Below, piece after piece: positions 53,007-64,000 of a DNA stretch of 64,000 nucleotides (the first letter of the stretch is position 1; the number at the start of each line of letters is the position of its first letter). Under the pieces are notes generated by a model, which was not told the origin of the DNA, made no database searches, and saw nothing but the letters and a program-made list of their open reading frames with translations. The stretch comes from an uncultured bacterium (GTDB lineage: Bacteria > Zixibacteria > MSB-5A5 > CAIYYT01). A program made the position numbers and the translations under genes. Location of the stretch: contig CAVPQS010000065.1 of NCBI GenBank assembly GCA_963707485.1, positions 654-64,653 on the forward strand, given 5' to 3'.

Positions 53007-53232
53007 GAACGAATCTCCTCTGCGATCGCATCGAATAAACTAAGGGGCTTGCTGGATTCCCGCATTCGCGGGAACGACAGCAAACACTCCACCTCGCGTT
53101 TCGCTTCAGGTGGACTACCTTTTAATGATTGAGTATAGCACTTATTCCGAGCGGGATACAAGCAAGAACTTGGGAAGCGCTTACCAAGACGCGGACAATT
53201 CACGATTTCAGCCGGACTTTGACGGAGACGAA

Positions 53233-61800: not shown

Positions 61801-62005
61801 TATCATTATCGCCGTTGCGTTTGTCGTACCAGCAGACGACGAAGTTGCCCTCGAGGTCGGTGGCGATATTGGAGTAGCCCTGATAGCTCATTCCGAAGTC
61901 GTCGTTGACGCGGAAGTCCGGGACATTGCCGGCGTCCGAGTCAAGGAACCAGAGAATGCAGGTCAGGAAAAAGCAGAGTAATGCCAAACGCGCTTTCATG
62001 CGCAT
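58838..62005 (-). CDS. T9SS-sorted surface protein: 7-bladed beta-propeller repeat + 4 Ig-like (BACON-like) domains + cohesin-like module + Por_Secre_tail CTD
   Basis: Signal peptide. Seven ~50-aa repeats (RxNDD...GNFVVVWxDxRNGNxD(I/V)YGQRY). Repeated ~100-aa Ig-like domains (NTGxGxLxWT). A ~145-aa segment AIPGSATEMEIALHNFVPVDSMAIALQFDDAALRVDSV...GAGPIAYVYLTVQ fits the cohesin pattern. Canonical T9SS CTD: LEQNFPNPFN...LEILNILGQQV...WDGDD...GIYFVRL...KLVLLK. Confidence 0.8.
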   Translation of the reverse strand: MRMKARLALLCFFLTCILWFLDSDAGNVPDFRVNDDFGMSYQGYSNIATDLEGNFVVCWYDKRNGDNDIYIQLFDRLGTRQGTNRRVNDDPIGNEQFRPSMMKDQLGKFVVAWQDYRVTGYPFNADIYGQRYNADGSAAAANTKINDDFGVETQGWQDIDADDFGNYVLVWEDNRNGNYDVYGQRYHKSGAKLGVNFRINDDAGAAYQHNPKVAVDGDGDFVVVWYDNRQGLDLIMGQRYNASGVAQNTNFLISDNLTGNKCVVPDVACDYAGNFTVVWIDYRNGNYPNNADVYGRNYWANGDSRSANYRINSDGANGSQAEVVVGMDYFGNFITAWRDDRQGNNDIFAQYFKADGNILGGNYRVNTDATTSTQSFPNVTMDGINIYYTWTDDRNGSFDVFARITEYGAPAIVISPNSFQFNAQLGGSNPASQSLLINNTGYGILNWTATDNQAWLSVTPTSGAAPTTAIVSVNIAGLAYGEYSGRITIADATGKDSSRTAVVALTITAPTLKITPGSVSVETQLGTPPPDDKYFMIENSGSGTVDWTITGKPNWLGLSQLSGAAPSAIDLIFYPDSLPGTGDYTANLSITSPQAVNSPQQFTVNLSHSTDVPMISVDPDTVHFSFAANASTIATQELVIFNTGAGTIDWLIAADAIWVTIDTEDGFGDAVVNIGIQPGILTKGEHYTTLSISDPNAYNSPKNLTVHASVTPPPPAICTSPLILNAISRSGIADFDTIDVIINNCGADGLNWTAVANQPWLSINPANGGDSTTAQVIVDATSLAAGEYTGQLTITSAQAGNSPFLLPITLNVVPVDTLSLSSGNAIPGSATEMEIALHNFVPVDSMAIALQFDDAALRVDSVTAAGRAMGKLDFSIISSQTLGATEVAIESQNESLAIPVGAGPIAYVYLTVQDSAIEGECTISPSATVCDSTLMTFAAHSLGGSIAVGAATPVYPVDSPVLPSEYKLEQNFPNPFNISTAIPYSLANSGEVSLEILNILGQQVKTIFSGNQRVGSYYATWDGDDNFGRTLGTGIYFVRLQAGGISLVSKLVLLK

Positions 62006-62175
62006 GACACCTGTTCAAATTTTGTGCCGGAATTTTCAAGTGCTTGTGCGAGTGCTAAGTAGCGATTTTCGCGAAGCTCTGAGTTTGGTCAAAATGGGAA
62101 TAAAGTTCCGGGGGAGGGGGAAGGAATGGGGTAGAGACGAAATTAAGTCGAGCCAAGTAATCTATTGCCCAAACT

Positions 62176-62922
62176 TTGTACCCCACCCAACGGGTGGGTT
62201 TGGTCATCGAAGCGGCAAGTCTTGGTCCTTGGTCCGGCTTCCCGAAACGGCAGAATTGTCTCCTGCGGATAAATCAATCTCCAGCAATGTGTCGGGTATT
62301 TCCAGATAGTATTTGTAGCTCGACCACTTCCAATTTTCCGGCGATCCAACCAGTTTTCTCTTTACAGGATTCATGTGACAATAGTTAACCTTGCGCCAAA
62401 CTTGATTTTCAGTCCTACAGTTGTGGTCAAAACACCGCCTCAGCCAAAGGGCAATGCGTTTTTGTCCATCCCTGACAACTTCCAAATTCCGGATGAGATC
62501 AGAGTGCGATGCCCTTAGTTTCTCTACTATCTGCACCGCGATGCGTCGCTTAAGTTCGCCGATTTCGGGGCCGAGTTTCATCAATTTCCGCGGAACAATA
62601 ACTAAGTGCACATGCTCGGGCATGATCACATATGACAATAAGCGCGCCTGCGATTCTTGACAAAAACGCACGATTTCATCCAAGACTATTTGGCGGAAAA
62701 CATCATTCGTGAGTATTGGTACCTTTTTGTGCGTGCAAAAAGTCACGAATCGAGCGCGGCCATCATGGTCGTAGTGTTTGAGATGCATACTACAAATTGC
62801 GCTTTGGATGCGAATGAAGGCAATCACATTTTTAGCGGTGAATTTTACATCTGCTCACTGCTTCATCGTTATTTGAGATATGCCGATTCGATCGCTAGGC
62901 CCACCCGTTGGGTGGGGTACAA
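62176..62922. mobile_element. REP-flanked RAYT unit: perfect 23-nt inverted repeats (each an internal hairpin) bracketing a tyrosine transposase gene
   Basis: Left ttgtaccccacccaacgggtggg (62176-62198). Right cccacccgttgggtggggtacaa (62900-62922), its exact reverse complement. Each contains the CCCACCC-N3-GGGTGGG hairpin. Additional direct repeats GTTCCGGGG(G/A)AGGGGGAAGGA(A)TG at 62105-62131 and 62923-62946. Confidence 0.65.
62204..62788 (-). CDS. REP-associated tyrosine transposase (RAYT; IS200/Y1-HuH transposase-like)
   Basis: HuH motif YVIMPEHVHLVIV; C-terminal RAYT signature FDHNCRTENQVWRKVNYCHMNPVKRKLVGSPENWKWSSY (catalytic Tyr). Lower GC than the surroundings. The start (Met1 or Met14) is uncertain. 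Confidence 0.75.
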   Translation of the reverse strand: MHLKHYDHDGRARFVTFCTHKKVPILTNDVFRQIVLDEIVRFCQESQARLLSYVIMPEHVHLVIVPRKLMKLGPEIGELKRRIAVQIVEKLRASHSDLIRNLEVVRDGQKRIALWLRRCFDHNCRTENQVWRKVNYCHMNPVKRKLVGSPENWKWSSYKYYLEIPDTLLEIDLSAGDNSAVSGSRTKDQDLPLR

Positions 62923-63071
62923 GGTTCCGGGGAAGGGGGAAGGATGTTAGCTCAACGCTGAAGACGAGTGCATCCTTGACTTGCTTATGCAATTGTCAAT
63001 ATTAGACGGGAATATGTCAACTTGAGGCATCTAATCAAAATAGTCTGGTCCAATTAGAAACCGAGGACGCC

Positions 63072-63446
63072 ATGGGATTAAGAGATCGCGCTGAAATAGT
63101 CGCGTTCAAAAATGCCGCCGAACAATTCTGCACTATCATTGAGTCGGAGCCGGTGGAGATCCGCAGTTGGGGCGAAGAAGTGGTTCTATCACTATCAATG
63201 CTGTACGCCTATGGGGGACTGCTACCACCTGAGAGTGACTTTCCGGAGGACTTTCCCGATCTGCCTGACGAGTCCGAACTTTCGCATGACGAGTGGTCGA
63301 AGGTTTTCAACAAGATCGCGCTTTACTTGCATCCACAGCGAAGCGATTGGAAATGTCACATTTGCCCGGACAACGCAGAACCACATGATATTAGTGGCAT
63401 ACTCGCTGACAACCTGGCCGGCATCTATCGCGCTTTGAGGAGTTAA
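63072..63446 (+). CDS. Hypothetical acidic protein
   Basis: 124 aa ORF with no recognised motif; ends 4 nt before the IS256-like left end. Confidence 0.4.
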   Translation: MGLRDRAEIVAFKNAAEQFCTIIESEPVEIRSWGEEVVLSLSMLYAYGGLLPPESDFPEDFPDLPDESELSHDEWSKVFNKIALYLHPQRSDWKCHICPDNAEPHDISGILADNLAGIYRALRS

Positions 63447-63449
63447 TTC

Positions 63450-64000
63450 CAAAAGTTGTGTAAAAGGCAAAAAAGTAGCGTAGCCTTTTCTAAACAACAG
63501 TTCCGGCAAGAGGCCTTGAGGAGAGGCTTCTTCAAGAAAGGATACGCCGATGTCAAAGTATGAGAAGTTGAATGTATCGACAAGTGAAAAGCTTGCCGGG
63601 GAGGCGTCCGGATTGAGTCTTGATCTGGATGAGATTGCTCGAAAGGGCGCCTTGCGGATGTTAAGCGAGGTCTTGGAGGCTGAGGTTGAGGAGTTTTTGG
63701 GTCGCAAGCGTCATGAGCGGTTGGGCGCCGGTCACAGTCGCGGCGGCGAGGTGTTCAAAGGCTATCGCAATGGTTATGGCCAGGAACGGCAGGTGACCTT
63801 GGGTAGCGGAACCTTGGCGATTAAGGCGCCGCGGGTGCGAGAGACGAATGAGAAGTTCGAGTCGCAAGTTCTACATTCTTACCAGAAGCAATCCTCTCAA
63901 GTCAAAGCTTTGATTCCCGAACTGTATGTTCAAGGGCTGGCGCATGGGGACTTTGAGCCGGCCTTAAGGGGACTTTTGGGAGAAGCGGCCGGCCTGTCGC
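63450..64000 (+). mobile_element. IS256-family insertion sequence, partial (left end and N-terminus of transposase; truncated by the window end)
   Basis: Left-end sequence agttgtgtaaaaggcaaaaaagt resembles the IS256 IRL core (TGTGTAAAAG). ORF from ATG 63550 (AAAGGA Shine-Dalgarno) encodes MSKYEKLNV...EEFLGRKRHERL...GYRNGYGQERQVTLGSGTLAIKAPRVRE...VLHSYQKQSSQVKALIPELYVQGLAHGDFEPALRGLLGEAAGLS, typical of mutator/IS256 transposase N-termini. Confidence 0.75.

Follow-up and report, generated by a model that had tools for sequence, protein, structure and literature searches.

Background

Close to one end of the window, that is, of the whole stretch of 64,000 nucleotides (64 kb) from an uncultured bacterium of Candidatus Zixiibacteriota that was analysed here, a small minus-strand gene for a putative Y1-type HUH transposase lies between two inverted copies of a hairpin, outside which stand two copies of a G-rich direct repeat, the G-box. 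This arrangement raises the question of whether the unit is a REPtron, namely a RAYT/TnpA_REP gene between two inverted copies of its cognate REP, or an insertion sequence bounded by its own ends. To our knowledge, nearly all the RAYT/REP systems characterised so far come from Proteobacteria, and in the standard picture the RAYT is domesticated and immobile. The evidence presented below makes it very probable that the locus is a REPtron. The positions of its features are collected in Table 1, and loci on other contigs are cited by their L numbers.

Table 1 Features of the RAYT locus (window positions)
Feature	Position	Strand	Remarks
Left G-box	62096..62125 (core 62105-62125)	+	~100 nt upstream of minus-strand T9SS-type surface protein gene start
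Spacer, left G-box to left REP	62126..62175	.	50 nt
Left inverted-repeat arm	62172..62222	+	REP unit + 24-nt 3' extension TTTGGTCATCGAAGCGGCAAGTCT
Left REP unit	head GTAC 62178-62181; stem-loop 62182-62198	+	
RAYT / TnpA_REP gene (predicted)	62204..62788	-	194 aa + stop; coding part 62207-62788
Right inverted-repeat arm	62876..62926	-	REP unit + extension
Right REP unit	stem-loop 62900-62916; head GTAC 62917-62920 (minus-strand reading)	-	
Right G-box	62915..62944 (core 62924-62944)	+	3 nt (AAG) from GTAC head of right REP

The gene and its predicted protein

The start codon was set by homologue alignment at the ATG at 62788, and 5 nt separates the stop codon (62204-62206) from the left hairpin. 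The protein scores 27.1 bits against Pfam Y1_Tnp (gathering score 23) and 93.9 bits against the NCBIfam model NF047646, REP_Tyr_transpos (curated cut-off 80), and is well below the cut-off of 55 of the IS200 model NF033573, with 21.9 bits. A sequence search of the PDB gave 4ER8, the TnpA_REP of E. coli, as the sole significant match, in which PEHMHCI aligns with PEH59VH61LV of the window protein and YIYINPV with Y136CHMNPV (window VNYCHMNPVKRKLV vs VDYIYINPVKHGWV). The HUH motif is H59-V-H61, and the predicted catalytic tyrosine, Tyr136, is found inside YCHMNPVKRK; H59, H61, Y136, T16/T19 and NPV are invariant across 20 homologues. Two marks of RAYTs that are absent from the TnpA of IS200/IS605, have been described (Nunvar 2010, PMC2817692): a conserved N-terminal Thr and, following the Tyr, the motif NP(L/V)(R/K)xG. 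Both are present in this clade, with T16 and T19 invariant and NPVKRG in most members; in the window protein, as in its 3 closest relatives, K stands in place of the G (NPVKRK).

An AlphaFold model based on 20 homologues has a mean pLDDT of 82.9, the C-terminal ~20 residues, which are partly encoded by the REP extension, being unconserved, disordered and of low pLDDT. The top Foldseek match for this model is again 4ER8 (E=1.5e-9; TM-score 0.63 query-normalised, 0.73 target-normalised), which the transposases of IS608, ISDra2 and IS200 trail by four orders (about 1e-5; IS608/ISDra2 7.5e-6 or worse). Curated HMM, conserved motifs and predicted fold thus all point to a RAYT/TnpA_REP; an earlier reading of the letters, made without database searches (the sequence-only reading), had likewise called the flanked gene a RAYT.

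Four cysteines, C18, C119, C124 and C137, are invariant in the clade around RRC[YF]DHNCR...YCH, the counterpart of RFWEHAIR...YIY in E. coli TnpA_REP, and may constitute a clade-specific metal site.

The inverted hairpins in the window

The sequence TTGTACCCCACCCAACGGGTGGG at 62176-62198 (+) recurs as its exact reverse complement at 62900-62922, with 0 such matches expected in 100 shuffles, and a search allowing up to 3 mismatches revealed no copies of this 23-mer in the 64 kb beyond these two. Either arm folds alone into a hairpin with a 7-bp CCCACCC/GGGTGGG stem and a 3-nt loop. Scoring the whole window without filters against a covariance model of the hairpin gave the same 2 copies, at 36.4 bits each, the next-best score being only 13.7 bits, so that by both methods there is no REP copy apart from the RAYT in the 64 kb of the source genome. 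On these three points, the perfect 23-nt inversion, the hairpin in each repeat and the lack of another copy, the sequence-only reading was right. The ungapped inverted repeat spans 51 nt with 82% complementarity, because the REP carries a 24-nt extension (TTTGGTCATCGAAGCGGCAAGTCT) that is kept within the subclade of the window RAYT. The left arm overlaps the final codons and the stop codon of the RAYT, and the right arm sits 112 nt upstream of its start codon. There was no Rfam match for the hairpin, and no terminator-like site was called within 61900-63200; its identification as a known RNA family or an intrinsic terminator was dropped on these grounds.

Position 62907, in the loop of the right hairpin, is the exact contig end in L120 and L121, which come from two independent assemblies (GCA_049663865.1 and Logan SRR28060678). 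Either the assembler broke at the inverted repeat, or the population is heterogeneous at this junction; as a practical point, hairpins of this kind interrupt short-read assemblies. At 53089-53113, apparently between genes, there is a further hairpin, CCACCTCGCGTTTCGCTTCAGGTGG followed by ACTAC, which resembles, perhaps as a degenerate relative, the long-loop REP class CCCACCTGCCGCT.ACGCT.TAGGTGGGGTAC of L007 and L096.

A dispersed REP family in related genomes

A scan with GTACCCCACCCNNNGGGTGGG over one genome per species rendered at least 119 stretches, with at least 138 exact copies of the hairpin in at least 57 assemblies. Among the matches listed, 24 Zixibacteria-labelled MAGs account for 77 copies and 15 Ignavibacteria-labelled ones for 42, together 119 of the 138 copies listed, with a per-assembly maximum of at least 11; the single matches in Actinobacteria and other groups are, by our own estimate, about the chance level for 18 specified bases. 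A RAYT homologue is found within 500 nt of the hairpin in only ~10 of the 119 stretches listed, ~90% of the copies listed being far from any RAYT. Moreover, 43% of the hairpins lie inside ORFs of at least 120 aa, vs 88% of all bases (p=1e-35). The flanking hairpin of the window belongs, therefore, to a REP family whose copies are dispersed in related genomes, most of them outside genes. The sequence-only reading had named a 23-mer confined to this locus as an argument against a REP family; the copies in relatives answer that point by proxy.

The Ignavibacteria labels among these MAGs look unreliable. L116, so labelled, is 88.6% identical to the window over 1.3 kb, L065 is 77% identical to a Zixibacteria locus, and TPA 'binchicken'/SRP MAGs labelled Ignavibacteria/Ignavibacteriales show 72-89% nucleotide identity with Zixibacteria-labelled DNA (L116, L065 and L087 vs the window, L115 and L004). 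Since the labels are doubtful, we claim no cross-phylum spread, and spread to Ignavibacteria was dropped as an interpretation. Carriage by plasmids or phages was likewise abandoned, plasmid matches reaching at most 32% identity. A 53-kb contig filed as viral, IMGVR_UViG_3300028923_000001 (L249, L250, L252), bears 4 REP copies, 2 of them with the typical extension, and no RAYT in the parts examined; its DNA probably comes from the chromosome or a prophage of a Zixibacteria-type host.

The stem is under structural constraint, as judged from compensated changes. Among distinct sequences the loop-closing pair 11-15 is CG in 32, GC in 4, UA in 4 and AU in 2, a sample biased by its selection for paired sequences, and the variant CCCACAT/ATGTGGG alters two pairs. 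Because this first sample was pairing-filtered, the test was repeated with selection on the 5' half only, in which 19 variants were fully compensated and most of the remaining picks were other hairpin classes with the common head GT[AG]CCCCAC. The head tetranucleotide among 177 hairpins is GTAC in 163, GTGC in 8 and ATAC in 3, and GTAG is not among the common heads; ~138 of the 177 had been chosen by a GTAC-containing pattern, and the remaining ~39 show the same head. These counts indicate that the family has a variant head, GT(A/G)C instead of GTAG, and not that a head is absent. The loop preference is A-N-C, the base preceding the head is G or T, and T is favoured directly 3' of the stem. 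A 3' extension common to the whole family was considered and dropped, since over 157 unique copies the information content there is near zero and the 24-nt extension is specific to a subfamily.

As to their arrangement, the hairpins are also found as inverted doublets, in L116 and L127, and in direct tandem arrays that repeat every 54-60 nt (L086:2087-2270, L026:7747-7830, L115:6801-6965, L246:7-140). The arrays, made of REP plus extension, are BIME-like, yet every unit has the same orientation. Further hairpin classes with the head GT[AG]CCCCAC and other stems and loops, such as GTGCCCCACAGCTTGCTGTGGG and GTRCCCCACCGCTTGCGGTGG, were seen in L008, L018, L030, L038, L073, L106 and L112, which suggests that the head-sharing classes form a REP superfamily in these genomes.

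Bracketing of homologous RAYT genes

Homologous RAYTs with readable DNA, at 52-71% protein identity, were surveyed for the bracketing seen in the window. Read on the coding strand, GTAC-hairpin upstream and hairpin-GTAC downstream are found at every one of them, in the window as well as in L029/L127, L108, L114, L115, L125, L129, L244 and L245-247, the incomplete contigs L035 and L100 having the upstream REP copy only. All the closest RAYTs (66-71% identity) carry CCCACCG/CGGTGGG on both sides, the other REPs around them are mostly of the same variant, and a 24-nt extension (...GATCGAAGCGGCAAATCT...) 3' of the hairpin is common to their subclade; as compared across these loci, the compensated stem variants track the RAYT subclade. 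In addition, the 21-nt REP core is identical beside RAYTs that are only 46-58% identical in protein, and so stays conserved down to ~46% protein identity. The perfect identity of the two arms in the window had been taken to imply either recent activity or strong conservation. Given that the core is identical beside such divergent RAYTs, it reflects strong constraint; the part about recent activity did not hold.

These data bear on the possibility that the hairpins serve in host regulation, as terminators or as stem-loops that stabilise mRNA, for example, and flank the gene by coincidence, functionally unlinked to the protein. A G+C-rich stem with a short loop, a T-bias just 3' of the stem and an extragenic location would all suit elements of this kind. 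On the other hand, the inverted bracketing recurs at all the homologous loci examined, the stem variant changes along with the RAYT subclade and the conserved GTAC head, outside the stem, is needless for a terminator; together with the lack of a terminator call and of an Rfam match, this leaves host regulation a very improbable explanation, and we retain the hairpins as cognate REPs of a REPtron.

The two nearest homologues, L125:10001-11200 (68%) and L244:1693-2808 (71%), are both directly upstream of rplU. The rplU leader is ~95% identical between them, which indicates that this RAYT position is stable and vertically inherited. The window RAYT is not at the rplU position.

The G-box direct repeat and the orthologous site in L116

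The 21-nt core of the G-box, GTTCCGGGG[G/A]AGGGGGAAGGA, occurs twice around the cassette with one mismatch (0 expected), and without gaps the repeat extends to 30 nt, 26/30 identical, its copies being 819 bp apart. The outer G-rich direct repeats to which the sequence-only reading had drawn attention are therefore real. Past the 30 nt, on either side of the copies, no homology was detected in comparison with shuffles, so that an origin by tandem duplication is unsupported. No third G-box with up to 3 mismatches exists in the 64 kb; in ~1 Mb of REP-bearing loci the only other one is in the L116 orthologue, and none of the 111 matches found in a scan of JGI metagenomes is near a REP or homologous to the window. 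The idea that the G-box might be a REP/BIME-like repeat of the genome, or a family of genome- or metagenome-wide distribution, was given up accordingly: it is locus-specific (window plus L116 orthologous site). Two other candidates were discarded as well, namely a relationship of the G-box region with the region upstream of rplU in L244/L125, where the alignment score equals that of shuffles, and the notion that RAYT cassettes in general are flanked by non-REP direct repeats. There are none at six other RAYT loci (0/6), whose direct repeats are REP/REPIN copies.

In L116:840-1100 (CAZIBI010000082.1) the same flank is followed by one G-box, right after which come a single REP and an inverted doublet of REPs. 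The inner ends of the doublet resemble the 3' end of the window RAYT gene, its ends are like those of the window cassette, and a RAYT gene is absent from this site. The cluster represents either what a deletion has left behind or a REPIN-like element of the non-autonomous kind, and a REP-filled, RAYT-less orthologous site in a close relative provides material on RAYT gain and loss. Because the L116 site has one G-box, the left copy of the window is ancestral to the site, and the right copy would have arrived with the cassette or been made by its arrival. The 50-nt spacer has no detectable homologue in L116 or elsewhere. A comparison with related strains had been proposed to find an empty-site allele: contigs retrieved through the exact DUF5063 neighbour protein show the same arrangement only, whereas the L116 site is free of the RAYT and contains REPs.

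That neighbour is a 124-aa ORF at 63072-63446 (+), between the RAYT cassette and an IS256 gene, which scores 25.8 bits against DUF5063, just under the gathering score of 27, and has no NCBIfam match. The 5' part of the IS256/Mutator-family transposase gene (Pfam PF00872, 48 bits) occupies 63550-64000 (+) and is cut off by the end of the window. The window locus is also found on three short contigs, which stop ~20 nt past the DUF5063 gene, before the IS256 gene, as expected for a repeated IS.

It could be argued that the G-box is a functional cis-element, an operator or a G-quadruplex-type motif, which controls both minus-strand genes, T9SS-type and RAYT, and is no insertion footprint. Each copy does precede a minus-strand start codon, by 100-135 nt; the left one is just upstream of a promoter-like TTGACC-16-GAAAAT site, and this left copy is kept in L116. 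But no third copy turned up in the 64 kb (up to 3 mismatches) or, except for the L116 orthologue, in the ~1 Mb of related loci; besides, the REP itself stands between the right G-box and the RAYT start. A regulatory role of the G-box is, in our opinion, unlikely.

The whole unit might also be an autonomous insertion sequence of the IS200/IS605 type, 0.8 kb long, with the hairpins as its ends and the G-box as a target duplication or a target-plus-end footprint. In keeping with this, the unit is bounded by inverted repeats plus a discrete 21-30-nt direct repeat 819 bp apart, the G+C of the cassette is low (47.6% vs 54.4 +/- 2.9% in the surroundings), its genomic context differs from that of the nearest homologues, and the gene is missing at the L116 orthologous site, where the flank is 88.6% identical. 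The IS256-family gene 600 bp away also indicates that the region accepts mobile DNA. However, the protein is far under the cut-off of the IS200 HMM and over that of the RAYT HMM, and gene-free hairpins are ~10x commoner than gene-linked ones among the matches listed. Moreover, IS200/IS605 elements are not known to end in inverted repeats or to duplicate their target. The finding that none of the six other RAYT loci has a non-REP flanking direct repeat also speaks against this interpretation, as does the copy number: the exact window protein is on 5 contigs, all 5 of which are the same locus, and no second copy of the cassette, or other sign of multiple copies, was found in the data examined. 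An IS of this type is thus quite improbable, and the REPtron remains the preferred interpretation, with a G-box repeat that lies outside the canonical REPtron system. Our guess is that the repeat is most likely the footprint of a cassette insertion or of a local strand transfer.

A possible mode of action

By analogy with E. coli, Stenotrophomonas and Marinomonas, the RAYT would bind the hairpin on single-stranded DNA via the 5' head GTAC and the stem-loop, and would then cleave nearby through a 5'-phosphotyrosine intermediate. In the strand transfer that follows, REP units would be excised, duplicated and re-inserted, which would account for the singlets, inverted doublets and tandem arrays in which one and the same hairpin is dispersed over Zixibacteria-type genomes. 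Both the catalysis by the protein and the mobilisation of these REPs by the RAYT are what we infer from that analogy. At the window locus the ~0.8-kb cassette may have been placed beside a pre-existing G-box upstream of the T9SS-type gene, by local duplication or by insertion strand transfer, which is again a guess. Several observations count against the REPtron interpretation, among them the lack of a REP copy away from the RAYT in the 64 kb, the low copy number in relatives (about 10 exact copies per genome among the matches listed) and the GTAC head.

The 30-nt direct repeat, the low G+C, the context other than rplU and the absence of the gene in L116 are features of a unit that itself moved, and are not predicted by a domesticated, immobile RAYT. 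It can be envisaged that the REP-RAYT-REP cassette has recently moved as a whole, and that the 30-nt G-box repeat is the junction of a RAYT-catalysed replicative single-strand transfer; we regard this as a rather improbable extension of the REPtron model. At this junction the right end of the cassette (...GGGGTACAAGG) would be linked to a site between G and T at the start of the G-box, and both G-box copies do begin with G followed by T. A GTAC head is predicted to steer cleavage to sites between G and T or between G and A, not between C and T (PMC8266576). An empty site would read left flank, G-box, TGTTAGCTC, and a circle junction would join GGGGTACAAGG to TTCCGG. If true, nature would here provide an example in which a RAYT has mobilised the gene that encodes it, the junction being readable and the changed cleavage specificity being encoded in the head.

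Comparison with known systems

IS608 and ISDra2, of the IS200/IS605 family, share with the window protein the Y1 HUH fold, as predicted here, and have sub-terminal hairpins that are recognised on single-stranded DNA. Their ends, unlike those of the window cassette, are not mutual inverted repeats, nor are their hairpins dispersed without a gene. Neither of the traits that define membership of that family was found: the TnpA model is matched below its cut-off (21.9 vs 55 bits), and multiple identical copies were not seen in the data examined.

REP copies number in the hundreds in E. coli or Pseudomonas, and in the relatives of the window in the tens, not hundreds, among the matches listed. The REPtron architecture is that of E. 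coli tnpA_REP (yafM/rayT), a group 2 RAYT flanked by REP/BIME sequences (PMC3333891, PMC3479197), whose product binds single-stranded REP via the GTAG head and the stem bulge and cleaves between C and T (Ton-Hoang et al., PMC3333891). The window locus agrees with it in the curated HUH/Y1 family and the predicted fold, in the gene between inverted REPs, in the tetranucleotide head plus stem-loop and in the dispersal of REPs in extragenic space, observed here in the relatives. It differs in a protein identity of ~18% (structural alignment), in the GTAC head instead of GTAG, in a perfect 7-bp stem without the bulge that E. coli TnpA_REP requires, and in the clade-invariant Cys119/124/137, where E. 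coli has RFWEHAIR.

REPs of group 3 are perfect palindromes (Corneloup et al., PMC8266576). The hairpins described here resemble those of group 3 in Pseudomonas, Stenotrophomonas and Marinomonas (PMC3116915, PMC2817692, PMC8266576) in being perfect palindromes with a 5' head, in forming REPIN-like inverted doublets (L116, L127) and in the co-variation of RAYT and REP, and differ from them in the fourth head base, here C, and in the direct tandem arrays of 54-60-nt period that are common in Zixibacteria-type loci. On the other hand, group 1/4 RAYTs are flanked by 16-mers of low abundance, 12-14 per replicon, and those of group 4 are common in Cyanobacteria, Chlorobia and Caldilineae (Bertels et al. 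2017, PMC5581495). A flanking repeat of ~10 copies per genome, among the matches listed, and hosts outside Proteobacteria are reminiscent of these two groups, and we assign the window RAYT to no group.

The conserved REP head is GT(A/G)G or CGTC (PMC3733652, PMC2817692), and the published surveys deal with GTAG- and CGTC-headed repeats and leave GTAC unmentioned (PMC3733652). Changing GTAG to GTAC abolished cleavage in Stenotrophomonas and shifted it to GA/GT sites in Marinomonas, which fits a guide-like role of the head (PMC8266576). Since GTAC redirects cleavage in Marinomonas, a natural GTAC system would be predicted to use a different cleavage dinucleotide, and the combination of a natural GTAC head and a perfect stem constitutes a test case for the guide-like role in choosing the cleavage site that has been proposed for the head. 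The head of the window REP family is neither GT(A/G)G nor CGTC; apart from it, every feature of RAYT/REP systems that could be assessed from the locus and its relatives is present. The locus documents a coherent RAYT/REP system that spans Zixibacteria-type MAGs. It is a system of a known type from an under-studied phylum, with one unexplained local direct repeat and a variant head.
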